In this document: positions 11,144 through 63,422 of the stretch, one piece after another | How positions within the stretch are numbered: position 1 is the stretch's first letter | Layout of the letters: each line of letters begins with the position of its first letter | Virus record (IMG/VR): IMGVR_UViG_3300032167_000028 | Length of the DNA stretch: 64,000 nucleotides | Direction: 5' to 3' (one strand) | Source: a virus | Lineage: Duplodnaviria > Heunggongvirae > Uroviricota > Caudoviricetes | Notes under the pieces: model-generated | What the model saw: the letters and a program-made list of their open reading frames with translations, nothing else | The model's database searches: none | Told to the model about the DNA's origin: nothing | Made by a program: the position numbers and the translations under genes

Positions 11144-13555
11144 TCAAAAATTTTGGGACATAAGTTCTGATAACTAATTTACTAAATCAGCGAAATTCAT
11201 CATATAATACATTTTGATTTTTGTTTGTTTTACTGCATTATCACTTTCACGTCTCCAATCTGCTTCGGTATTTCCTGGATATTTACTACCAACATTGTAA
11301 CCATAAATCTAAGTGCGGACTGTACTTTCAGAAAGATTGCGTTTATAAAAATTTCCATTTGTTTTTATTTCTTGCATGTGTTTATACAATTCTTCAAGGA
11401 TATAAGATTGAGGAATATAAACACCATTAATAACATATAGATGTATTTCCTAGACAGAGTTTGTCTTTCCTATTTCTTGAGCACTTTCTGCAAAAGCTTG
11501 AGATACCATTAATTGAGCATCATCAAACATTAAATAAGAAGCAAAAAGAGAAAAATAATTTTCTAGTGAAGAACGGTTTTTAAAACCTAATAGACCAAGA
11601 CCACTGTTAATTAAAGCAAATTTTAACCACTCAGCATCATCTTGAACATCTAGTACATGAGCCTTTTTACCCATAGCTAAAATATTATCTATTACACTAA
11701 AACCATTATTATCTTTACCCATTGCGCCGCCAGAAAAACCAATTCCGCGTTCCCTCATTTTAGTTCCTGGAACAAAAGTATCTAATAAACCAGACTGATC
11801 TTTTACTGTTGTAAGAACGTTATATTGAGTTAAAATTGCTTTAGCTCCCTATTCTTTTTTAGCAATGGAATTAGCTAAAGCTTCTAGTTTAGCTAGCTGT
11901 TGTCGACGAATTTCTTCAAAAGCTTCCGCATTATGCGTATAATCCTTTACAGAAGCTTCACGTCTTATCCATAGACTTTTCTAAGAGTCTTTAGAATGAT
12001 CATAAGCTTTTTGTAAAATAGAATCCATTTCTTCTTGTGCCTCAATAAGTTCTTTCTAAAGTCCTTTTAATACTTTCTGTTTTTCTTGTATTGGAGCATC
12101 ATCATACTCTAATTCGTAATTAAAATATCCTAGAATACTATCAACTTTTGGATTACCTTTAGGACGATATCCTTTACCAAGAACGGTATTTCCTTCTTTT
12201 CCAATCATTTGTTCGATAGCTTCTTGTATGGTTCTTTCTTCAGAATAATAATAAGTTTGTCGAATAGAAGAAGTAATTGCCTCATTAATCGCAGTTTTAG
12301 ATAGGGCATTATTTAACTAATATCTCTCTGTCAACCATTGCCTAAATTCTTTATTGGTGGAACTTATAGCTTTACTTTTCCAACCTCTACTCTCTCTATA
12401 AGCCTATTTTTCACGTTCATCTTTAGCGAGTTGGTCTAATATTTTTGTCATTATTCGTTCCGCGTCTTTATCAGATTGTTTTATAGACTCTCTTAAAGCT
12501 TTTTGCTCTTCATCCTCTGCGGGGACATTTAAAGAATCCATGTAACTATTGGTTCGTAGTAGAGCTTCTACCTTGTCTTCAATTGATTTTTCATCTAATG
12601 TATCCAATGCTGTTTCAAAACGTTTCATTCTTTCTTTGCTATTACTATTTAAGAAATTTTTGGCTGTGCCATTTTCAGTAATATAACGTTCTTTTAAATC
12701 TTCAGTAACAATTTGTTCAATAATCCACATTAACAGTTCTCGTAAAACAGTTTGAATAATAGCTACATTAAAGTCAACTTTATTAGTAGAAAGATTTATT
12801 TTTAAAGCTTTAGTAACATAAGGTAATAATTTCTTTTCAGCTTTTTCAGCGAAACTGCGGCCAGAACCAGTAAATAATTTATTAGCTCGTTTACTTATTT
12901 CTCCTAAAGAACGAGCAATGGTCATCATTTGTTTTTGGTCAGTTGGACGACCAGCACGTCCTTTTGTACCCCAATATAAATCTTCAGCTAATTTATTATA
13001 GTACTAAATTTTATCATCGTAGTTTACACCTTCTCGGGCCGCCCTTCGTTCAAAACGTTTGGCAGCGTTTACATATTTCTACTAAAGTTCTTTACTACTT
13101 AGTACTCGTTCAATATCAATAGCACTCCAACGTTCTGCTTCATGTCTTATTTGTAAATAAGCCTATTCAGTTCCTTTCTAGGCTTCATTAAGAATTTTAA
13201 TAATTTCAATAAAATTCGCATTTTCTGGGTTAGAAGGAAATTCTATTTCTAATACTTCACAAGTTTTTCGCAGCCATTCTAATTCTTTCTTTCTTTCGTT
13301 GTTGGCGGCGACCATTAAAAAATTAATTGCTTTATCTACCGCAGAATCCTAAAAATTAGGATTTAATTTAGTAAAGCCAATATTATTTAAATATTTCTAT
13401 ACTTCTTCACCTATAACACGATTCATTGCAAACTGTTCATCATCACCAGAAAGTAAGCTTGTATAGTAAATATAATTATTTTTTAAACCTATTCCCAAAG
13501 AAGGGAAATAATTTCCGCTACTAACTTGAGGAGGACCTTTCTTTTTCTTTGCCAT
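11144..13555 (-). CDS. ~803-aa helical/coiled-coil hypothetical protein (possible virion protein), interrupted only by TAG codons
   Basis: Manual translation: one frame from ATG 13555 to TGA 11144 with at least 15 in-frame TAG and no TAA/TGA. It joins track ORFs 13397-13609, 12404-12928 and 11450-11758. Confidence 0.85.
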
Positions 13556-13593
13556 AAAATCACCTAAAAAAATAAGTGAGTAGATTTCTCTAC

Positions 13594-13989
13594 TCACCAA
13601 ATTGTCCAAGCATAATCAAAATGCTTTTGATAACCATTATGTTGCTCCATCTCAGGATCAAAATCATCCCAGTCTTCTTCATCTAAACGATAGAAGCTGT
13701 TTATTTTCTCACGCCAATGACGACGGATAACAGAATTGGTTTCATTCTTAGCATATTGACGCGGCCCGGTGAGATAGAAAGTTCGCCAATACTGAAGAGC
13801 ACTGGGAATATGTCTCACAGGTCCATAGGAGTAATTAAGTTCATCTTCAGTAAGTGAAGCACAATATTCTGGATAATTCATTCCAGAGTAAGCTCCATAA
13901 TGCCAACGTTTAGCGAAACGATTTTTTACTTCGTCCTTATGACGGCACTTACCATGATAGCGAGAAACTTTGCGTCCGTTTTCGTACAT
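13594..13989 (-). CDS. hypothetical protein
   Basis: ORF with AGGAG RBS. Confidence 0.6.
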   Translation of the reverse strand: MYENGRKVSRYHGKCRHKDEVKNRFAKRWHYGAYSGMNYPEYCASLTEDELNYSYGPVRHIPSALQYWRTFYLTGPRQYAKNETNSVIRRHWREKINSFYRLDEEDWDDFDPEMEQHNGYQKHFDYAWTIW

Positions 13990-16349: not shown

Positions 16350-16808
16350 TCAATTTTTTGTAGTTAGCATTTCAATTGCTTTAGCCGCGTGCTCTGGCAG
16401 CAAACCTTTGCGAAAAGTTGTCTGAATTAAATGATCTTTAATATCAGACATATCATTGTCATCATCAAGAATGACATAATGACTTACATCAGGATTGCGG
16501 CTAAGCCACTCTTTAATTTCATCGCCACGTTCGCCACGAGCATCAGAAATGGTACGATCAACAATTTCAAGACCATAAGGAAGTAGTTGTTCTTTAAGTT
16601 GCTTAGTTCTTAAAGAAGAAATACGCCAAGAGGAAGATAGAACAATTTCTGCACCAGTAATAAAAACAATATCTTGTAGGCACAAAATAGCACGCTGATC
16701 CAGCATTTCATAGCCGCGATACTTCTTTTCGTGATTATCCCAAAGCCAGCGACTAAATTCCTCAGAATTTAATACACCATCAACATCGAGAAAAATAATT
16801 TTTCTCAT
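16350..16808 (-). CDS. HAD-superfamily phosphatase (RNA-repair 'Swiss army knife' type)
   Basis: FLDVDGVLN, IVLSSSWR, RG.EI..WL, YVILDD. Confidence 0.85.
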   Translation of the reverse strand: MRKIIFLDVDGVLNSEEFSRWLWDNHEKKYRGYEMLDQRAILCLQDIVFITGAEIVLSSSWRISSLRTKQLKEQLLPYGLEIVDRTISDARGERGDEIKEWLSRNPDVSHYVILDDDNDMSDIKDHLIQTTFRKGLLPEHAAKAIEMLTTKN

Positions 16809-18352: not shown

Positions 18353-18429
18353 GCGAGAACAACGAGAAAAGAATTCTTGTATAAAAGAAGATTTTAAGTC
18401 TTTTGAAGTATCTCTTCTCTCTGCATCGC
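18353..18429 (-). ncRNA. candidate Y-RNA 1 downstream of TROVE gene
   Basis: GCGATGCAG-stem-ATACTTCA...ATTCT-stem-TTCTCGC; bulged terminal helix; repeat of 18527-18651. Confidence 0.6.
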
Positions 18430-18444
18430 GAATGAAAACATAAA

Positions 18445-18520
18445 AAGAAACCACGGGCCGCGGCCCAACGGTACCGAACTCGACCAATCTGAATACAGAT
18501 TCCGTATAACGTGGTTTCTT
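18445..18520 (-). ncRNA. structured small RNA between the two Y-RNA candidates
   Basis: 11-bp terminal stem AAGAAACCACG/CGTGGTTTCTT with internal hairpins. Confidence 0.45.
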
Positions 18521-18526
18521 AAAATT

Positions 18527-18651
18527 GTGAGAATGTCATAGAGAGAATTTTTTTCTCCCTTGTTGTAGCCAACAAAGGTATTTTTGTTGAAATTCTTTGC
18601 AAATTCAAATAAATCTCATCATAAATGAAGTATCTCTCTATGCTGCATCAC
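18527..18651 (-). ncRNA. candidate Y-RNA 2, starting 10 nt after the TROVE stop codon
   Basis: GTGATGCAGC-ATAGAGAG-ATACTTCA...CTCTCTAT-GACATTC-TCAC. Confidence 0.6.
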
Positions 18652-18660
18652 AATACTTGT

Positions 18661-20316
18661 TCACTGCTTTTGCCTATTCTGGATTCCATCCCAGATTTCA
18701 GTATACGCCTTGGCAAACGAAGCTTCATTACCAGTCCATCCATAGAGAATCGCGCAGCGCTCAGCCATCTCCGGAATGAGAACATTGTCATATCCAGCAG
18801 TCTGGATAGAGAACACGTTCACCTTTGGATTGACCAAGCGACGATAATCCTGAATGAGCTTAAAGACGTTGATATAGCCAGTATATGCAAATCTGCTGTT
18901 GTCAACCGCATATGTCTTGCCATATTCTCTGCACTGCGTACTAGTGCCATATAGACCGCCGTGTCCAGCCTGCTGATCGGAATAAATAAAGATATTATCC
19001 CAATGCTCCTTATTGTTAATGGCATTCTTAAAGAATTCCCAAATGCCACCTTCAGTAGAGCCACCAACATCATTGTCGCCGCGCTTGGAGATTTCCTTTG
19101 CCTGAGACAATACGCCGCGACGCTTGGAGATTGGTGCAACCTTCAGTCTGTCGCCAAACTTGCCAACATAACCTTCATCAGAGCATGCGGCAGTAATAAC
19201 AGAGGAAAGATTGTCGATTTCAGCGACGCGAACAGAGCCATATTCACTGTTAACCGTACCCCAAGCTGAACCAGAGTTATCGGACAAACACATGGTTTTG
19301 CCCTTCAGCTTCGGATAATTGTCCATTGCAATATCCATGCACTCTTCAAGCGCATTGATAATAATAGGCTTGTGATTACATGAGCTGCTTTCAACCGCCT
19401 TGAGCGCAGAATAATAGCGGAACGGAAACTGCTTACCAGTCAGAACTCCGTCCTTCACTTTATTCATGTACTTCATGCAGAATGCAGAATCGTTCACTTC
19501 AGTGAAGACACCGCGAATATTGCGCAGCAGCGCCATGTGTCCCATGTCAATGGTGTCGAAGATTTCCTTCCAGGACTTACCTTGAGAGCGAAGATTCTCC
19601 CAAGTCTTCTGATCGGTATCAACAGCAATCGTACCGGTCTTCATCAGCTCGTCAATTACAGGAGAATTGGCATGACACAGACGCACCGCGTTAATCAAGC
19701 CAATTTCATGATTCTTATACTTTGCCAGATGATAGCGCTTTGAAGAAGAAATCTTCTTTGCCCAAGAACGCTTGAGAATAGACGGCATACGATTCTTTTT
19801 GCCGCTGTTCTTATACATGAAATATGCCATCTGGCTCATCGGTTCATCTGCACGAGACATCACAGTCTGGTTGATTTCGTCAAATACACCCGGATGCGTC
19901 TGCGTAAAATACTGACGCTTGGGATGCATGGCAGCTCTGACCATGATGACCTGCGGATTCAGACGCATATTGAAGTCCTTGCGAAGCGCGATCGCCCAAG
20001 CGAGTGTACCTTCAAAGTCATAATCCAGCGCCTTATCAATGGCAGCTTCCATGATCTGCTCGGTATTCATGCCATCGTATTTGCTCGGCATGATGGTAAA
20101 GCCCTTTACAAGCTTGTGCTCACAATATTTGCCGCTGCGCTTGCCGTCGCGATAATAAGACGGCTCACCGAAGATAGACGAAGCCGTGATCATCTTGAGC
20201 GTATCAAGGGGGTTAATCTTGTATGAATCGCCGCCCATAAAATTGGTAACGGTTTCATCAAGCCTAAGAGAATTCTGCTGATGCATCTCAGCAACTGCTT
20301 TAGACATCTTGCTCAT
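18661..20316 (-). CDS. TROVE-domain (Ro60/Rsr-like) RNA-binding protein with vWA domain
   Basis: NFMGG, FGEPSYY, HMALLRNIRG, GKQFPFRYYSA, CLSDNSGS (MIDAS), IYSDQQ; start taken at MSKMSK with GGAG RBS. Confidence 0.88.
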   Translation of the reverse strand: MSKMSKAVAEMHQQNSLRLDETVTNFMGGDSYKINPLDTLKMITASSIFGEPSYYRDGKRSGKYCEHKLVKGFTIMPSKYDGMNTEQIMEAAIDKALDYDFEGTLAWAIALRKDFNMRLNPQVIMVRAAMHPKRQYFTQTHPGVFDEINQTVMSRADEPMSQMAYFMYKNSGKKNRMPSILKRSWAKKISSSKRYHLAKYKNHEIGLINAVRLCHANSPVIDELMKTGTIAVDTDQKTWENLRSQGKSWKEIFDTIDMGHMALLRNIRGVFTEVNDSAFCMKYMNKVKDGVLTGKQFPFRYYSALKAVESSSCNHKPIIINALEECMDIAMDNYPKLKGKTMCLSDNSGSAWGTVNSEYGSVRVAEIDNLSSVITAACSDEGYVGKFGDRLKVAPISKRRGVLSQAKEISKRGDNDVGGSTEGGIWEFFKNAINNKEHWDNIFIYSDQQAGHGGLYGTSTQCREYGKTYAVDNSRFAYTGYINVFKLIQDYRRLVNPKVNVFSIQTAGYDNVLIPEMAERCAILYGWTGNEASFAKAYTEIWDGIQNRQKQ

Positions 20317-20332
20317 AATTGAGCTCCTTTCA

Positions 20333-20515
20333 TCAATAATTAGGTCTATACCAAGGTCCATCAAAAGAATCATCTACACACTGCGTAGCAAGACAACATG
20401 GACAGATCAGATAATCGACAGCTAAGCGAACCCTGCCGTCATTTCTTCGATCTTTAAACCACACTGGTTCCATTTGAACTCCACACTCATTGCATACAAT
20501 GTCAGCTAATGTCAT
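20333..20515 (-). CDS. small zinc-ribbon protein
   Basis: CNEC...CPCC; AGGAGG RBS. Confidence 0.55.
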   Translation of the reverse strand: MTLADIVCNECGVQMEPVWFKDRRNDGRVRLAVDYLICPCCLATQCVDDSFDGPWYRPNY

Positions 20516-20535: not shown

Positions 20536-20940
20536 TGGTGGAGATGACGGGAATCGAACCCGTGTCCAAATTACAAACCTTCAAAAACGTACTTACGCAA
20601 TAGTCATTGTTTCGAGTGTTCGATTGCTAACTGACAAAAAGCAATCATGGAAGCCAAACCCAATGACAGGTCATATCCATTTAAGGGTGCACTGAAGTGC
20701 CATCCACCACGCAGTTTAATTTGCCCGCAAACTGAGAAAACGGGTGTCGATATTCTATCTTTGATCCTCATATGCTTACCGAATATCAGGTGCATCATTT
20801 TGGAGGTCAGTCTCGCTTACGCGAGAGCGAAGACCGGAGTACGGAAAAAGTTGAGATTTATTCTCTGTCTTTGATCCTTAACGCGGATCATTCGTGCGTG
20901 TTCTTGCTTATTTGCAACCTGTCGAAACCAAAACATCCCC
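20536..20940 (-). ncRNA. ssrA: tmRNA
   Basis: 5' GGGGATGTTTTGGTTTCGACAGG; 3' GGTTCGATTCCCGTCATCTCCACCA; internal tag frame ending ...RTPVFALA-TAA. Confidence 0.93.
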
Positions 20941-21135
20941 ATAAAAGACGACCCGGAGCGAATCACAGAGTCGTCAGAGCAGAGCTAGTCATGCTCAGTG
21001 AGTCGTAGGCTTCATGCAACATCGCTCGGTGACTAGTGTAGCAATGCTAGTGGATATTGCGAATCAACCTTAAGCTGCGCTTATTGCTACGTTACGCAAC
21101 TAATGGGGTACGACGCTCCATTGCCCTCTGTGAGC

Positions 21136-21212
21136 TGGTCCGGGTGGAGGGATTCGAACCCCCGACTTCATGCTCCCAAAGCACGTGCGCTACCAAACTG
21201 CGCTATACCCCG
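21136..21212 (-). tRNA. trnP: tRNA-Pro(TGG)
   Basis: CGTGC TTTGGGA GCATG; two acceptor-stem mismatches. Confidence 0.85.
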
Positions 21213-21218
21213 ATAAAC

Positions 21219-21359
21219 AAGACACATTAGTTTTATTATTTACGCGCTCTAACCAACTGAGCTAATTCCCACACTCTAGTGGGAATATAGGACTCGAACC
21301 TACGACCTCGTGCTCCCTAAGCATTAATTAAACTTGAAAAGAATTGCTGTATGTGTCTT
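21219..21359 (-). ncRNA. CAGCAA-module RNA copy E carrying a permuted tRNA-Pro(AGG)-like body (YrlA-like order)
   Basis: AAGACACAT/ATGTGTCTT stem; GC-TTAGGGA-GCACG, T-arm, looped acceptor ATTCCCA/TGGGAAT, D-arm, CGT. Confidence 0.8.
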
Positions 21360-21373
21360 AACTTTATATTAAT

Positions 21374-21402
21374 ATTATATATTAAATTTTTATTTTTGTC
21401 AA
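21374..21402 (-). promoter_or_regulatory. sigma70-type promoter directly upstream of RNA copy E
   Basis: TTGACA-17-TATAAT. Confidence 0.85.
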
Positions 21403-21407
21403 AAAAC

Positions 21408-21520
21408 AAGACGCTGTAAATTGCATATGGGATTCGAACCCATGTAATTTTCTTGGAAGGAAAATGTCTTAACCACTTGACAAATGCTATTGAGTATTAC
21501 TCATTTGCTGAAAGCGTCTT
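21408..21520 (-). ncRNA. CAGCAA-module RNA copy F enclosing a complete tRNA-like cloverleaf (TCC anticodon, no CCA)
   Basis: AAGACGCT/AGCGTCTT stem; ATAGCAT..TGTC AAGTGGTTAA GACA TTTTC CTTCCAA GAAAA..ATGGG TTCGAAT CCCAT ATGCAAT. Confidence 0.75.
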
Positions 21521-26496: not shown

Positions 26497-27100
26497 AAAG
26501 GATAATTTGTTTAATAAATCACTAGACTTTCGCCTTACCCCAATAATTCTTCTAACATATTCAGGCACCGAGGAAATAAGACTGAGCATAAAGGAGCGAC
26601 CGATATACTTCTTACCCCAAGAGGTTTCCCTCTCAATTCTCGTATGGGACTGACTACCCAATACCTTTCACCAATCATTCAGTAAAAGAAATCAATTTGT
26701 ATTTAATACTAACAACTAATTAAACAAAACTTGATAACTTACCGTCTTAGGCTACTTAGACTTTAAACCAATCTTATAGGACATTTCTATCCATCACGAC
26801 GAATCTGCTTATTGGCTTTTCCAAGGTTTGCCACAGTCACCAGCTAAGACCTAACTTGGATTCGTTGCGGAGTTACCCGCCCTTCTATTACGCAGACGAT
26901 TGGAATAATCCCTTTGTTAGCGAACACCAGAGCACATCCTCTTAACATTAGAAGTTTCTTCATATCGCATAACATCACTGTTTCTGCGGCCGCGTTTTAT
27001 GGCTATCGTCATAAAACGTATGACTGTTGTACGAGGATTCTCAGCACGTTGATTAGACGCTCTGCACTGAGTTAATCATTTATTAAACAAATTATCCTTT
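26497..27100 (-). ncRNA. large (~600 nt) structured ncRNA candidate, ROOL-like
   Basis: Perfect 23-bp inverted repeat at the two ends (26497-26519 / 27078-27100), own promoter at 27117-27145, U-tract after the 3' arm, internal GNRA hairpins, no credible ORF. Confidence 0.6.
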
Positions 27101-29742: not shown

Positions 29743-30657
29743 TTATCCTACGGTTGCCTGACCTAAGAGTTCCGCAAGACGCTTCGCCTCCTGTGCAGAT
29801 GCACACTGAATCTTTACATAGTAAGTTTCAGTTACAGCTTCGCCGCCTTCCTGCTTTACAAGGAACTTAGACATCATATAACCGGTTTTATTATCATAAA
29901 CGATTTGGCACCAATCACCGGCTTCCTCAACAACATCTACAAGAGCACCAATTGGTACCTTCTTAATAATATCACCGCTGGTAGATGGGCCGGTACGCAT
30001 ATTTACAGTAGAACCGCTAGAAGCAGTAACCTTTGCAGAATATAGCACTTTAATCACATCCTTATTATCAATAATTTCTTCTTCCTTAATTAAGGATTTG
30101 TCCATTTCAATTGGATTACCCTTACTGTCGTAAAGGCCTTTCATAATTGCATAGTGAGTCCAAGACTTATATTGTTTATTGTCAGTCTTTACAACACCAC
30201 TATCGTGTCCTTGGGCATGGTAAGCAATTCCATTATAATACCAACCTACATGTTGTTTAGTTCCTAAAGAATCTCGGAATACACAACATAATTTATCTTG
30301 TGGCACATTTTTAAACTTACCTTTCTCTGTCCAAATATCACTCTTCCATTGAGAAGTTGCACCAGAAACAACATCATTAATTCCTACTGCTTTAGCACCC
30401 CAACGGATAAATTGTGCACAATCATAAGCAGACTTGGCTTTTAATTGTTCATTGTCATACCATTTACATCCCTTACAATTAGATGCAGAACCATTTAAAA
30501 CTTGACAATTATTGGTTATATTCTTCTTATATTTTGGATATTGTTCAATTCTTTCTTTACGATAAGAGACTGTACAATCTTTCTAAGTGGCTCCATAAAT
30601 ATAAGGATTACCTATACGATTCTACATCCATTCTAATAGGTATTCCACTTTTGTCAT
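29743..30657 (-). CDS. NlpC/P60-like peptidoglycan peptidase with SH3b domain (2 in-frame TAG)
   Basis: ATG 30657 with AGGAGG RBS; GNPYIYGA, AYDCAQF, HVGWY..HAQG catalytic pattern; C-terminal VNMRTGPST...W..I.Y..KTGYM. Confidence 0.82.
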
Positions 30658-30669
30658 TTTTATTACCTC

Positions 30670-31227
30670 CTATTTGTTTTTTAAATAGGTTCCTGGAAAA
30701 TAAAATGCTAAAATTTCTTCATAAGTCTAGCCAGCAGCAGCTCGATTTTTTGCTCCATTTTGACTCATTCCAACTCCATGTCCTCCTCCAGAACCATTAT
30801 CATATGGATCCGGTTGAGAAATTAAATAAGGAAAATCTCCGCCCCAACGAGCTTTAGAAGAAGTTGTTTGTCCGCCATTTGATGAACTATAATAGCATCT
30901 AGCAATATTATTTCCATAGTAAAGCAATTGGCCAGCAGTTTTTTCAACTCCAGCATAAGCATTAGGATAACCAGTTAATCTTGAAGCACGATAAGCCTAA
31001 TCTTTAGAAGATTGATCTGAAATTTGAATATAACCCTTATCCTTTTTTAAACGAGACATAGCAAAGTTGCGGGCGGCAACAGCTTGGGCCGCACATGCCT
31101 CAATATGGGCATTACCAACTTCACTAGGTACGACGCCTTTTAAATATTCTTCTAAATCTAATTCAACTTGTGATGTACCAAAATATTTAATATTCTCATC
31201 CCGGGAGAATGATATCAGGACTTTCAT
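30670..31227 (-). CDS. SpoIID/LytB-family lytic transglycosylase (2 internal TAG, ends at a third TAG in frame with next gene)
   Basis: LEEYLKGVVPSE, AQAVAAR, D....Q(TAG)AY, YSSSNGG, GHGVGMSQNGA, YEEILAFYFPG. Confidence 0.85.
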
Positions 31228-52065: not shown

Positions 52066-53535
52066 TTAAACTGGATTCTCTTCATTAAGAACCTCCTGAG
52101 CCTCTTCCATATCTGGAGCATCGGCAGTTTCCTTAACAATGCCCTCAAGTACCTTGAAGCTATGGTTCTTATGCTTATAAACAGAGATATTTGGCTTATT
52201 TACAATACGAGCAACTACACCCTCACGAATATGAGTACCATCAACAGTGGAAGGACCATCAAAGTACTGTTCTACCTTACGAAGAACATACTCGCCTGGA
52301 GATACGACAAAGGTATCATCTTCTCCATTACCATCGGTATCCATACCCAAATCTGGAATCATAAAGGTTTCAAAGTGTGGAACAACATTGATACCCATCT
52401 GCTCACAACGATAACGCATCTGATCTGGAGATAGCTCAGTAACGAAACCATCTTCAGATACCTGAGTCATACGATATATATAAACATTACAACGTGGCTT
52501 TAGAATATCGTTAGGATCAGCCTGCCAAGTAACACTATCCTCGTTGAGAGTAATAGCTGATAGAGGCTCGTAATCACCCTTTGGATCACAACCATAAGAG
52601 AAAGTAGTGGTCTCACCATATAGCTTTACAAATTCCTTATCCTGAATCTTCTTATTACTACAAGAAGCCATAATAGGAGAATTTTCATTTACAAAGCCAA
52701 CAATCTCATAATAGGCAACCTCGCCCTTATGCAACTTACCCTCAAACTTCTTAGCCATGGCCTGACGGAAGGAGTTATCCTCATAGAAGCCGTCATTATG
52801 CTTTTCGTCAAGAACCACACGACGAGTACCAGTAACATAATCATACTCAGTATATACCTTGCCTGGACGACGTAGAATCTTATCAAGTAGAGTACGATTC
52901 TTCTGCTTATTTACAGGTAGATAACCGGTACGGCCGGAAGTACCGTGAAGCTTTTCAGTTAGTTCAACTACATCGCCACACTTAAAAGCGTCAAGATGAT
53001 AAGCAAGCTGCTCAGTATCAACATGCTCATAGAAAGTTGGTGCATGATTTGCCTTTGCACGCTTCATGCCACCACTACCAATGCTAACGCCGCCGACCTT
53101 ACGACGTGGAATATACTTCTTACAAATCTCAATACCGCCTAGAGTAGTAATCTGATCACCAACCTTTAGATCAGAAACAGTAGTAAATTCTGCCAGAGAA
53201 GTAATTGGTAGCAATAGACCATCAGACTTTGCACCACGAAGGTTAATTGCCTTAACATTACGCTTAGTTGGGCTTAGATAACCGCCACAACGATTACCTT
53301 CTTCATCCTTACGCTCAACAAGATCATTAACACGACAGAACTCTTCACTTAGCTGACCATCGGTTGGGAAATATACACACATCTGGCCAACCTTATAATC
53401 CAGACCAACGATTACATCATTACCAAATACGGTAGCAATTTGTAGTCGGTCTGCATTTGGATGCTTACGTAGCTCCTTAATGGAAACAATATAACCACAA
53501 TAAGACATTATTTTTCTCCTTTCATTATAGAGCAA
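52066..53535 (-). CDS. RNA ligase (Rnl2/DRB0094-like) with N-terminal OB-fold
   Basis: HPNADRLQ, LRG.KS.GL, TEKLHGTS (KxxG), YEIVG, REGVV, YKHK...F. Confidence 0.82.
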   Translation of the reverse strand: MLYNERRKIMSYCGYIVSIKELRKHPNADRLQIATVFGNDVIVGLDYKVGQMCVYFPTDGQLSEEFCRVNDLVERKDEEGNRCGGYLSPTKRNVKAINLRGAKSDGLLLPITSLAEFTTVSDLKVGDQITTLGGIEICKKYIPRRKVGGVSIGSGGMKRAKANHAPTFYEHVDTEQLAYHLDAFKCGDVVELTEKLHGTSGRTGYLPVNKQKNRTLLDKILRRPGKVYTEYDYVTGTRRVVLDEKHNDGFYEDNSFRQAMAKKFEGKLHKGEVAYYEIVGFVNENSPIMASCSNKKIQDKEFVKLYGETTTFSYGCDPKGDYEPLSAITLNEDSVTWQADPNDILKPRCNVYIYRMTQVSEDGFVTELSPDQMRYRCEQMGINVVPHFETFMIPDLGMDTDGNGEDDTFVVSPGEYVLRKVEQYFDGPSTVDGTHIREGVVARIVNKPNISVYKHKNHSFKVLEGIVKETADAPDMEEAQEVLNEENPV

Positions 53536-54051: not shown

Positions 54052-54579
54052 TTATAGAGCGGTTAAAGTATTTATCAAATCATCACTCGAAGAATTTCCA
54101 CAAACAAAACATATAGTATCTACTTCAACCTCTGGCTCTGGCTTCTTAGGAGTAACAAGTTCTGTTACTACACCAGAAGCGACCTTCATATCCATCTTAC
54201 CCTTATAATTACTTGTAAGGAACTTCATTAGACAGGGCTTGGTAAGCGGACCTTCATATTCATCCTGAATAACTTCAATAATTTTCTCTTCATCTGTGAT
54301 TAACTTAGGAACATACTCGCCAATAATAGCAAGATTAAGTGTATACTCCGCCTTAGTAACCTTACGGTCATCTGGACAAGTATCCACCATTTCTTTAAAC
54401 ATCTTTTGAACCTTTAGAAGTTCAGTATCAACGAAATCTTCCTTAATATTATCGCGGCAACCCTTATCAATTGCCGCGCGCTTAATATGGGCAATGGTAT
54501 CAGAAAGAACCTTCTTACGATTAAGATCACCAGACTTCCAAGCTGTTACCATATCTTTATGTAGTCGTTCAAGTGTCAT
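54052..54579 (-). CDS. GatB/YqeY-domain protein
   Basis: DMVTAWKSGD..RK.VL..IKRA.ID, E..K..E...I.EYVPKL, GK.DMKVAS. Confidence 0.75.
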   Translation of the reverse strand: MTLERLHKDMVTAWKSGDLNRKKVLSDTIAHIKRAAIDKGCRDNIKEDFVDTELLKVQKMFKEMVDTCPDDRKVTKAEYTLNLAIIGEYVPKLITDEEKIIEVIQDEYEGPLTKPCLMKFLTSNYKGKMDMKVASGVVTELVTPKKPEPEVEVDTICFVCGNSSSDDLINTLTAL

Positions 54580-55113
54580 AAAATCATCCTTTCTTAAAGA
54601 GTTAGAATAAAAAGAAAAAAGTGTACTGTTGCCGAGATAAAAATTAAAGCAGTAATTAACGTAAAAAAGAGACATAAAATAGAAAAAACTATATTTAAAT
54701 AATTATGAAAACCAAAAACATTCTTTCCTTTTGGGGTAAACAATTTAGCCAAAAAATAAAATAATGCAGTAAGACCACTACTCAATAATAATACTAACCA
54801 TTCATTCCACATTAACTATTTCCTCTCCTTTATAAACGCCAATATAACCAATAGGAACATAACAATGCGGACAATAAACCTTACAATGCTGCACTGGTAG
54901 CTCCATCAAATCAAATACTTCGCCGCATTCAAGACAAGTATGCCACAACGGACCTTCGGTAAGAATAATTTCATTCATTTAAAATACACCACCGTTCCAA
55001 AACAGTGTGGACAAGCTTTGAGAGAAGCATATGTTTCACTAATTGGTAAGAGTTTATACTCTTCTACCCATACATGACAATGTGGGCAAAAAACTTCTTT
55101 AATCTCATGATTA

Positions 55114-59315: not shown

Positions 59316-59432
59316 TGGGCCGAAGGTCGGAATCGAACCGACTCACGCGGGTTAACAGCCAAAGATCATTGCAGACACGGTATATTTCTATACCACCTAA
59401 AGTACGCCGCTCTACCATTGAGCTACTTCGGC
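59316..59432 (-). tRNA. tRNA-Asn(GTT)-like gene interrupted by a 44-nt insert in the anticodon stem
   Basis: GCG|insert 59361-59404|GG-CTGTTAA-CCCGC; insert = GGTATA-GAAA-TATACC hairpin + CTGCAA; 3' end short of a full NCCA. Confidence 0.72.
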
Positions 59433-59435
59433 ATA

Positions 59436-59570
59436 TGGTGGGAGAGGTTGGATTTGAACCAACATGAGCATTACTCGGAGGATTTACAGTCCTTTGTTTT
59501 TGCTGTCGAGGAATTTTGCAATACCCGTATTCCGGATTTTCCTCTGCGTCTGACATTCCGCCACTCTCGC
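59436..59570 (-). tRNA. tRNA-Tyr(GTA)-like gene interrupted by a ~50-nt insert in the anticodon stem
   Basis: GAG|insert ~59492-59541|GA-CTGTAAA-TCCTC; insert contains hairpin + CAGCAAA. Confidence 0.75.
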
Positions 59571-61904: not shown

Positions 61905-63422
61905 TTACTTAATCACTGCGTAACGCTCCTTATTGAGACACTCCATCATCAGATCATAACCGGTCTTGCCGCTCATGATAGTCTGGAAGATAGAAGGAGA
62001 AAAGCCACTCACAAAGCTAATAGCATCCTTGCCGAGCATAGGAATGTTATTAGTGCGAGCATTGACGTTCCAGTAAATAAGGTGCGGCATCTGATAACCG
62101 GAGTTCTGCCACTTACGAGCGATGCCCTCCATTAGAGTGGTATTGCTCTGATAACGAAGGTTGTAATCCTTCGCCTGATCAAACTCCATATCACTGATGA
62201 CAATGATGTTCTTAGGCATATCGTCCTGTGGAACACGGTTGCGAATAGCGGTATTCAGAACCATGTCGAACGCGGCCTCAATATTGGTATTCTGGCAGAG
62301 ATTAGTAGATACGATACGATGTACCTTATCACAGAAATCAACACCAGTACACTCAATTAGCTGAGGACGAGAGCTGAAGGAGATGTAATGACCCGCGAAC
62401 GGACCCTTTGCCTTCTCCGCACAGTACAGGCCAAGGCTTACTGCAACATCAATAGGCTTAACATCAGCACTGCCGCAGGTCATAGAACCAGAGGTATCGA
62501 CCATACAGAGAGCGTTGAAGCTGGCACCATCGAAATAATCAGCAAGATTATCCCAATACTTATTCACCATGAGACGATCAACATTGTCAAGTGCCACAGA
62601 GCTGCGGCCATAGCCGTAATAGCTATTGCTACGCATTACCTTGATGGCTTCCTTAACAACCTCGTAAGGATACAGAGTCTTGGCATTTACCTTAGTAGTA
62701 GTATCCTTAGCGAACTTCTCATACTTCGTCTTGATAATATCACGACGAGCAAAAGCGTTCTTATAAATCATGCCAGCCTTAGAAGGAATCTTATCAAACT
62801 CGATTTCATTCCAACGATTCTCAGACATGAGCTTTTCAACAATATTGATACGAGTACGAAGCACAGAAAGAATCTGGCGGTACTGCTTATGGGTTAGACC
62901 AAGATGCTGACGAGTAATGTCACCAAGGTGACGAGTCTCCTCAGAAGAAGCATTCTCAGACTTTAGCCACTTAGCAAGTAGAGATGGAGTCTTACACTGT
63001 ACGTCAAGCATAAGCTGCTTCTTGATAAAAGCGAAAATCGCAGTATCAATAGCCTGATTCATACCAACCATACAGTAGAGATCATCCCAGCGACCAAACT
63101 CTGGAATATACTCAAGATTGCGAAGAACCGCCTCTGGATGATGAACAGCAAGCCACTTTAGATTCTCACGGAAGAAACGACGCTCACCCTGGCCGCCACG
63201 CACATCACGAATATAGAATAGACACTTTAGTGCATACTCTGGATTCTCGTTGTATGCAAGGGCAAACATATTCACTACGTCATCAACAGAACGCTGACGC
63301 ATAGCTGCGCCCATTGCGAACATATCAAGAAGCTTAGACTGAGTAGTATAATGCTTTACAGCACCATTCTCAGTACGACCGATATTAGTACTAGACTTTA
63401 GACCGTTCATAAGAGTATTCAT
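61905..63422 (-). CDS. DUF2828-family TROVE-like protein with vWA domain
   Basis: TENGA, LF..RD.RGG.GER, GRWDD, AKWL, VDTSGSM (MIDAS), NTNI.AAF, ISDMEFD, YWN, SGFS. Confidence 0.85.
   Translation of the reverse strand: MNTLMNGLKSSTNIGRTENGAVKHYTTQSKLLDMFAMGAAMRQRSVDDVVNMFALAYNENPEYALKCLFYIRDVRGGQGERRFFRENLKWLAVHHPEAVLRNLEYIPEFGRWDDLYCMVGMNQAIDTAIFAFIKKQLMLDVQCKTPSLLAKWLKSENASSEETRHLGDITRQHLGLTHKQYRQILSVLRTRINIVEKLMSENRWNEIEFDKIPSKAGMIYKNAFARRDIIKTKYEKFAKDTTTKVNAKTLYPYEVVKEAIKVMRSNSYYGYGRSSVALDNVDRLMVNKYWDNLADYFDGASFNALCMVDTSGSMTCGSADVKPIDVAVSLGLYCAEKAKGPFAGHYISFSSRPQLIECTGVDFCDKVHRIVSTNLCQNTNIEAAFDMVLNTAIRNRVPQDDMPKNIIVISDMEFDQAKDYNLRYQSNTTLMEGIARKWQNSGYQMPHLIYWNVNARTNNIPMLGKDAISFVSGFSPSIFQTIMSGKTGYDLMMECLNKERYAVIK

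Follow-up and report, generated by a model that had tools for sequence, protein, structure and literature searches.

A circularly permuted, tRNA-Pro-like RNA of a tailed phage as a candidate Y RNA-type tRNA mimic with an ACAGCAA handle

Introduction

Y RNAs of the YrlA type are defined by a GNCGAA/CGAA motif near the 5' end and by a Ro60 gene on the same strand within about 4 kb (PMC4201824). Their terminal stem carries a T-arm, a closed acceptor-like stem and a D-arm, and a YrlA of M. smegmatis whose acceptor stem has 7 bp is both cleaved by RNase P and given a CCA in vivo (Chen et al. 2014, PMC4201824). In phages, the Ro60 of phiLo binds adjacent Y RNA-like RNAs that have a stem-bulge-stem handle, and the ribonucleoprotein (RNP) has been proposed to act on host RNA-decay or defence factors or on host exonucleases (PMC12135203; PDB 9KOP, 9L5Y). 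YrlA tRNA mimics are already known, as is a phage Ro60 that has Y RNA-like partners. In this study, we analyzed a 64,000-nt stretch of DNA (the window) from a virus of the Caudoviricetes, IMG/VR record IMGVR_UViG_3300032167_000028, and within it a minus-strand element, Copy E (21219-21359), that contains the parts of a tRNA-Pro(AGG) in circularly permuted order. We conclude, with a probability of roughly 0.6, that Copy E is a phage-encoded tRNA mimic of the Y RNA/YrlA kind, belonging to an apparently undescribed class of handle RNAs.

Copy E shares with YrlA the order of its arms, the nucleotides of the tRNA tertiary pairs, a position on the same strand near a Ro60-type gene and the presence of several copies per genome. 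Unlike YrlA, it has ACAGCAA and a 3' G in place of GNCGAA, a complete 7-nt anticodon loop, and a handle that exits through a three-way junction in the anticodon stem at 29/30. The same handle is found on tRNAs at many other positions, or on none, and its associated protein is of the DUF2828/DUF7788 type, whereas that of YrlA is a Pfam TROVE protein. The phiLo system also combines a phage Ro60-type ring protein with small RNAs adjoining its gene, as proposed here, but Yrl1 and Yrl2 of phiLo are recognised by CGAA and no tRNA body has been described for them; the RNAs of that type in the window are the elements at 18353-18654, not Copy E.

Permuted tRNA genes of Cyanidioschyzon merolae, some archaea and algae are matured through a circular intermediate by the bulge-helix-bulge (BHB) splicing endonuclease and a ligase. 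As in Copy E, the 3' part of the tRNA lies upstream of the 5' part and rotation gives a canonical cloverleaf; as in the handle RNAs, leader and trailer pair, the acceptor linker is short (with CCA in some members), and the breakpoints vary and include the anticodon stem. Copy E differs from them in its bacterial-virus context, in having no BHB, and in that no EndA-type endonuclease was found among the 30 open reading frames (ORFs) scanned, while the handle family has a sequence motif, ACAGCAA, instead of a structural splice motif and includes members with no tRNA cargo. The transfer-messenger RNA (tmRNA) and ROOL RNA of phage RNA islands share their island with Copy E, and tmRNA is likewise a tRNA mimic; unlike tmRNA, Copy E has no mRNA-like part and no alanine-type acceptor, and in sequence it is related to neither tmRNA nor ROOL.

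Anatomy of Copy E

Copy E is 141 nt long and runs from 21359 to 21219. Reading of the sequence confirmed the order of parts given in an initial annotation of this stretch, in which the T-arm precedes the D-arm and the acceptor is closed by a loop. In the direction of transcription, the features are as follows.

21374-21402, minus strand: sigma-70-type promoter TTGACA-17-TATAAT, matching the consensus at 12/12 positions, 14 nt upstream of the handle
21351-21359, minus strand: handle 5' arm AAGACACAU, pairing with 21219-21227 (9 bp) and covarying across 16 relatives
21344-21350, minus strand: single-stranded ACAGCAA directly 3' of the 5' arm, invariant in two family alignments
21323-21343, minus strand: AU-rich spacer a, 21 nt, pairing in part with spacer b in the predicted fold
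21309-21322, minus strand: GC-UUAGGGA-GCACG, tRNA positions 30-43 (2-bp stem, 7-nt loop UUAGGGA and the 3' strand of the anticodon stem)
21316-21318, minus strand: anticodon AGG, with A34 at 21318
21287-21308, minus strand: variable loop AGGUC and T-arm (21303-21287), within the local alignment to Rfam YrlA; the T-stem covaries
21265-21286, minus strand: closed acceptor hairpin AUUCCCA / loop CUAGAGUG / UGGGAAU, with an 8-nt loop lacking CCA; all 7 pairs covary
21242-21264, minus strand: U8-A9, D-arm (21262-21246), G26 and CGU (21244-21242, positions 27-29)
21228-21241, minus strand: AU-rich spacer b, 14 nt, of differing length among relatives
21218-21227, minus strand: handle 3' arm AUGUGUCUU (21227-21219) and a conserved unpaired G (21218)

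CGU at positions 27-29 pairs across the break with positions 41-43 (21309-21311). Joining CGU to GC gives CGUGC-UUAGGGA-GCACG, and the neighbouring tRNA-Pro(UGG) reads CGUGC-UUUGGGA-GCAUG, so the near identity of the two arms asserted by the annotation is borne out. Its remark on the unusual A34 was also correct, and the consensus promoter that it placed just upstream is present. Two of its details allow a second reading. The break at 29/30 holds, yet 28/29 can be read as well because there is a U on both sides; and the 8-nt acceptor loop is present, while a hairpin of 8 bp with a 6-nt loop (G-1:C73) can form as well.

Rotation of Copy E gives a canonical 76-nt cloverleaf in which the anticodon stem has 5/5 Watson-Crick pairs and U33 and G37 are present; ARAGORN recognises it as tRNA-Pro(AGG) and called no tRNA in the unrotated element. 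Unfiltered ARAGORN over all rotations was far too permissive and was replaced by filtered and geometry-fixed tests. The tertiary signatures G15:C48, G18G19 and T54-C56 are present, together with a standard T-loop. The minimum free energy of the fold has a z-score of only -2.2, and support for the structure therefore comes from covariation, not from energy. Moreover, the 230 bases around Copy E are unchanged in two further metagenome samples, which argues that the element is not an assembly artefact.

Homology searches placed Copy E near YrlA and below its threshold. An Rfam search over the element at E <= 1 returned only YrlA, with no self-cleaving ribozyme or other family; the match to YrlA (RF02553) scored 32.5 bits against a gathering score of 69 and was local, covering model positions 23-87, exactly the T/acceptor/D module. 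The 5' region reads AAGACACAU-ACAGCAA and does not contain the Ro-binding motif GNCGAAN0-1G (CGAA). BLAST of the region against cultured phages matched only an ordinary tRNA-Pro, and an exact pattern of the acceptor/T/D core of Copy E had no match in IMG/VR contigs, so that the collection searched does not include the window.

A family of RNAs with an ACAGCAA handle

Copy E belongs to a family that we define by the 5' signature W-AGRC-N4-5-(A)CAGCAA, a copy-specific closing helix of at least 7 bp, a G left unpaired beyond the 3' arm, and the presence of a DUF2828/DUF7788 gene in the genome; all four are found for Copy E. The handle is a terminal helix of 7-10 bp, with ACAGCAA after its 5' strand and the conserved G after its 3' arm. 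Within the window, AGRC-N5-CAGCAA has nine exact matches versus 0.10 expected, all on the minus strand in the tRNA region, and the signature combined with a T-loop pattern occurs in at least 116 IMG/VR contigs (more than 116 among the matches listed). A total of 262 elements (232 unique) were extracted from 80 IMG/VR loci and the window. A closing helix of at least 7 bp with the element's own partner arm was formed in 253 of 288 motif occurrences, compared with 97 in a control in which the variable arm bases were exchanged between copies. The unpaired G, which lay outside the search pattern, is present behind the 3' arm in 97% of 259 elements, and the A preceding CAGCAA is conserved in 80% of copies.

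The cargo of the handle is a short hairpin only, a linear tRNA, or a tRNA permuted at one of several positions, which may be close to 29/30 or fall within the variable loop, the D region or the 3' strand of the acceptor. About two in five members carry only the short hairpin. At less than 95 nt, approximately 47% of the 232 unique elements are too short for a tRNA body, which fits a protein-binding handle as the functional core of these RNAs.

In a literature search of incomplete coverage on phage permuted tRNAs, DUF2828, phage Ro-like RNAs and ACAGCAA, we found no description of this handle, no link between ACAGCAA and DUF2828/DUF7788, and no Y-type RNAs with a full anticodon loop or with several tRNA permutations. 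These three features are apparently new.

A closed form of the handle was also observed in the window. Two linear tRNA-like genes at 59316-59570 (minus strand) carry, inserted at about 29/30, a hairpin GGUAUA-GAAA-UAUACC followed by GUGU-CUGCAA. The hairpin resembles the open handle's 3' arm, G..A and 5' arm linked by a GNRA loop. Rfam recognised one of the two genes as a 115-nt tRNA and gave a weak YrlA match at 59384-59490.

Covariation among relatives of Copy E

The T/acceptor/D order was found in 76 unique elements. In this unselected set, positions 27-29 and 41-43 form 3/3 pairs in 41 elements, compared with 0-17 in slid registers. Sixteen elements also keep the cis 30-31:39-40 hairpin, the 7-nt loop, U33 and R37, and these E-type elements were aligned. 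The rows of this alignment were partly selected for foldability; 97.4% of its cells are paired versus 32-46% in slid controls and 70.9% in shuffles, and 27 of 30 pairs show compensatory changes on both sides. The covariation score for the Copy E structure is 0.718 as against at most 0.164. The three pairs across the break are kept at 97.9%, again with changes on both sides.

The anticodon loops of these relatives suit their identities, with G37 for Pro and Leu-CUN and A37 for Lys, Thr, Val, Asp and Ile, and the junction is mostly CG|GC. Pattern scans of IMG/VR detected the Pro(AGG) form in 7 contigs and the Pro(UGG) form in 15. Positions 30-43 of Copy E are identical in the relative at locus L140 and in those of the L012 type. 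Between Copy E and L140 the whole anticodon arm is identical and the T and acceptor stems differ by compensated changes; since the arm is unchanged while the stems have diverged, it seems to be constrained in its sequence.

An E-type element was also observed in a cultured phage, Enterococcus phage EFGrNG (MW004545, 3627-3746), about 250 nt upstream of its DUF2828 gene. It has the motif variant ACAGCGA, an ACG|GC break (29/30) and the anticodon loop CUAUGGA (A34), scores 47.8 bits on YrlA and offers a workable model for Copy E. The handle elements of cultured phages as a whole score 28-48 bits on this model, none of them reaching the threshold.

Association of the handle with DUF2828/DUF7788 genes

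The window encodes a protein of the type found with the handle.

61905-63422, minus strand: protein with DUF2828 and DUF7788 domains (Pfam, 148 and 114 bits)

An AlphaFold (AF2) model of this protein (pLDDT 70) indicates that it is a divergent Ro60-like protein with a ring and a vWA domain: its 13 best PDB matches are all Ro60/Rsr/TROVE proteins. BLASTP and phmmer detected no link between DUF2828 and TROVE/Ro60, whereas the fold comparison did, and Atlas protein clusters mix DUF2828, DUF7788 and TROVE.

Exactly one DUF7788 ORF was present in each of ten handle-bearing IMG/VR phages tested, and none of five tested had a Pfam TROVE match; the base rate of DUF2828 homologues is 704 in 50,697 phage records. 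In seven cultured phages of seven lineages, Bacillus Thrax4, Listeria LMSP-25, Enterococcus EFGrNG, Mycobacterium Nicholas, Escherichia REP5, Campylobacter F370 and Staphylococcus SEP9, the DUF2828 gene has 2-5 ACAGCAA elements on its own strand, directly before or after it and within 1 kb. The gene is often annotated there as "Ro-like RNA-binding protein". Genome-wide in the cultured phages, GAC-N4-ACAGCAA occurs only beside the DUF2828 gene, and a reversed-pattern control gave zero matches. In four tRNA-bearing phages without DUF7788, the motif had only chance matches in coding repeats, with no closing helix or a chance one of 6 bp.

Two of these cultured phages offer further observations. 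In Escherichia phage REP5 (OQ174504, 4223-4979), the handle elements lie within a Felix-O1-type tRNA array and overlap an annotated 131-nt "tRNA-Thr" and a "tRNA-OTHER", which are probably mis-annotated handle RNAs. In Listeria phage LMSP-25 (NC_024360, 2470-3021 and 6850-8061), a ROOL match of 88.5 bits, below the gathering score of 99.1, is found about 1 kb ahead of the DUF2828 gene, which is followed 1.3 kb later by a gene for an RtcB "tRNA splicing ligase". As in the window, tRNAs, ROOL, a Ro-like gene, handle RNAs and an RNA ligase are found in one island.

Proposed function of Copy E

The initial annotation had left two readings open, a Y RNA-like mimic or a bacterial-type permuted tRNA gene. 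The evidence favours the mimic, not as a canonical YrlA but as a member of a separate ACAGCAA class. A mimic of the Y RNA type accounts for the members without tRNA cargo, the free attachment point of the handle, the association with a Ro-like gene and the YrlA-like order of arms. The simplest reading, by analogy, is that the ACAGCAA handle would serve Ro-like proteins of the DUF2828 type as the CGAA stem serves Ro60/Rsr.

We infer the following course. Copy E would be transcribed from its own promoter, and its 3' end would probably be set by the RNase P cut of the tRNA-Pro(UGG) that begins 6 nt after the handle. Its ends pair into the 9-bp helix, leaving ACAGCAA single-stranded on the 5' strand and the G unpaired on the 3' side, and the handle projects from the anticodon stem of what is otherwise a whole tRNA fold, with positions 30-40 folded as the anticodon hairpin. 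We propose that the handle docks on the DUF2828/DUF7788 ring protein as the terminal stem of Y RNA does on Ro60; tRNA-binding factors would then be presented with the tRNA body, including its authentic anticodon loop of the tRNA-Pro type. The anticodon arm itself may be the recognition surface for some such factor. Possible roles of the RNP include that of a decoy or sensor for tRNA-targeting defences, RNA repair, and control of host exonucleases as proposed for phiLo.

Several points weigh against this reading. The relatives keep canonical 7-nt anticodon loops with U33 and an identity-appropriate R37, which a mimic does not obviously need, and the arm shared by Copy E and L140 stayed identical while the T and acceptor stems diverged. 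The acceptor loop starts with N-CCA in 26 of the 76 T/acceptor/D elements, although this would also follow from a cut by RNase P and the adding of CCA of the kind described for YrlA (PMC4201824). Copy E scores below the YrlA threshold and lacks CGAA, and its link to a Ro-type protein is one of genomic association. The negative control for that association comprises four phages. The DUF2828 gene of the window lies about 40 kb from Copy E, and in some IMG/VR phages the distance between gene and elements reaches about 27 kb, so adjacency of handle and gene is not universal; their co-occurrence could partly reflect shared ancestry of large tRNA-rich phages.

Alternative explanations

The best-surviving alternative, which we nevertheless regard as unlikely, is a cassette for processing or stability of the tRNA array, in which the leader-trailer helix marks cleavage sites or protects small RNAs, no Ro-like protein takes part, and the cargo consists of tRNA debris or spares. 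This would agree with several elements whose start lies 2-3 nt past the CCA of the tRNA upstream or whose end falls a few nucleotides short of the next tRNA, with the ordinary linear tRNA enclosed in 17 of 124 long elements, and with a U-run after the 3' arm of Copy F, the neighbouring element described below. However, mycobacteriophages, Felix-O1-like phages and Firmicutes phages alike conserve ACAGCAA, the fixed spacing of this motif and the 3' G, which points to a partner that recognises them specifically; the DUF2828 gene of Nicholas and of SEP9 is flanked by the elements but has no tRNA array alongside; and the cargo keeps its full tRNA tertiary signatures and covaries, and is therefore not debris.

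A functional permuted tRNA gene appears more improbable still. In this model, the handle aligns the ends of the break, an endonuclease excises handle and spacers, and a ligase, which could be the Rnl-type enzyme of the window (52066-53535) acting with end-healing enzymes or the host RtcB, joins 29 to 30; the acceptor loop is then opened by RNase P together with trimming of the 3' end or addition of CCA, which gives a decoding tRNA-Pro(AGG). The complete cloverleaf after rotation, the covarying pairs across the break, the canonical anticodon loops, the N-CCA of some acceptor loops and the prevailing CG|GC junction all fit this model. So do the RNA ligase and a HAD_SAK_2 RNA-repair domain encoded in the window, the two linear tRNAs bearing the closed handle at 29/30, and the anticodon itself, as AGG is otherwise absent from the 33 tRNAs that ARAGORN detected in the window.

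Against it, the predicted fold shows no BHB at the junction of Copy E: the unpaired stretches lie at one end of the spacer helix and form a three-way junction. Among the E-type relatives, spacer a ranges from 9 to 22 nt and spacer b from 6 to 15 nt, with only partial pairing, so that neither the spacers nor the junction offers a fixed ruler for cleavage. No tRNA-intron splicing endonuclease was found among the 30 ORFs scanned, which make up part of the window. About 40% of family members carry no tRNA, the other permuted copies of the window duplicate linear tRNAs (Ile GAU, Phe GAA and Gly UCC), and the model gives association with a Ro-like protein no role.

The acceptor end also disagrees. 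Prolyl-tRNA synthetase of the E. coli type identifies its substrate by C1-G72, A73 and the 3' CCA. All three are present in the neighbouring tRNA-Pro(UGG), whereas Copy E has U1-A72, C73 and the acceptor loop CUAGAGUG without CCA, and thus lacks the bacterial acceptor signals; C1-G72 is found in only 2 of 14 Pro-type relatives. A working spliced tRNA-Pro(AGG), the annotation's second reading, is improbable.

The genes named in connection with this model were observed in two places. The HAD_SAK_2 ORF ("Swiss Army Knife" RNA-repair HAD, 100.8 bits) lies at 16350-16808 (minus strand) within the tRNA island, and the RNA ligase at 52066-53535 bears a PHA02142 OB fold and is accompanied by a YqeY-like ORF at 54052-54675.

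The TROVE gene and its own RNAs

The remaining alternative concerns a second Ro60-type gene, which lies close to Copy E and is followed by RNAs of its own.

18661-20391, minus strand: TROVE-domain (Ro60/Rsr-type) protein, Pfam TROVE 25.1 bits, 846 nt downstream of Copy E
18524-18654 and 18353-18431, minus strand: two Y RNA-like elements directly after the TROVE gene, with the handle YGA-UGCAG-N9-AUACUUCA ... N9'-UNNUUCUCR

The best PDB relative of the TROVE protein is the Ro60 of Thermus phage phiLo (E 4.7e-7), and a search of IMG/VR with the protein for related loci gave no match. The handle of the two elements reads CGAU/UGAU-GCAG in the window and CGAA in relatives, and judged by sequence they are candidates for RNAs with the canonical CGA(A)-type Ro-binding handle. 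In the relatives L001, L003 and L004, whose TROVE proteins are 76-82% identical, 2-4 CGA-type elements follow the TROVE gene; some have YrlA-like tRNA modules, and some give full-length, sub-threshold YrlA matches. No ACAGCAA element was found in the 12-21 kb around these genes.

With its TROVE gene 846 nt downstream, Copy E lies inside the 4-kb same-strand span that defines YrlA (PMC4201824) and may be co-transcribed with tRNA-Pro, tmRNA and the TROVE gene, yet it is very unlikely to be the canonical YrlA bound by that protein, as it lacks GNCGAA/CGAA, the TROVE gene has its own handle RNAs directly after it here and in relatives, no ACAGCAA element was found in the 12-21 kb around the relatives' genes, and five handle-bearing phages have no Pfam TROVE match.

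Matches to RAGATH-36 RNA were also observed in the tRNA regions of two of these relatives (L004 13140-13308, 71.2 bits; L003 17439-17585, 59.9 bits; gathering score 70). In the window, the ORFs at 11144-13609 and 29743-31227 (minus strand) are open only with TAG as a sense codon (15 and 5 in-frame TAGs, respectively); the TROVE and DUF2828 ORFs have at most one in-frame TAG or none.

Surroundings of Copy E

Copy E shares its island with tmRNA (20536-20940) and ROOL (26505-27095). Pairing of ACAGCAA with either of these RNAs was considered and rejected, as UUGCUG is present in neither. The neighbours on the two sides of Copy E are as follows.

21408-21520, minus strand: Copy F, AU-rich and without CCA, resembling a tRNA-Gly(UCC) in normal order within the same handle, and followed by a U-run
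21136-21212, minus strand: canonical tRNA-Pro(UGG) (ARAGORN and Rfam), beginning 6 nt downstream of the handle of Copy E
20941-21135, minus strand: 195 nt between tRNA-Pro(UGG) and tmRNA, with no ORF, tRNA or Rfam match

The promoter of Copy E begins right after Copy F, whose long-range helix and U-run may also terminate the upstream transcript. Beyond Copy E, this promoter probably serves the downstream tRNA-Pro too, and the 195-nt stretch is probably co-transcribed with tRNA-Pro(UGG) and tmRNA.

Implications

DUF2828/DUF7788 carriers include Felix-O1-like, P100-like, Twort-like and Campylobacter phages as well as mycobacteriophages, and our literature search, of incomplete coverage, found no functional study of these domains. 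The handle elements are currently unannotated or mis-called as odd tRNAs. Their presence in tractable cultured phages of E. coli, Listeria, Enterococcus, Staphylococcus, Bacillus, Campylobacter and Mycobacterium makes binding, processing and phenotype directly testable.

A broader proposal, which we offer only tentatively and consider doubtful at present, is that the DUF2828/DUF7788 Ro60-like proteins of about 700 phages would form RNPs with ACAGCAA-handle RNAs that display authentic tRNA bodies, anticodon loops and all, in every permutation, as decoys, sensors or repair substrates against tRNA-targeting defences of the host; some of these RNAs, when cut by RNase P in the acceptor loop, might even become two-piece, CCA-ended and chargeable. 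Ro60 and Y RNAs have been described in animals, in some bacteria and in a few phages. For the question of what the tRNA-like half of bacterial Y RNAs does, the handle family provides hundreds of natural variants in which one handle is grafted on tRNAs of many identities and topologies.

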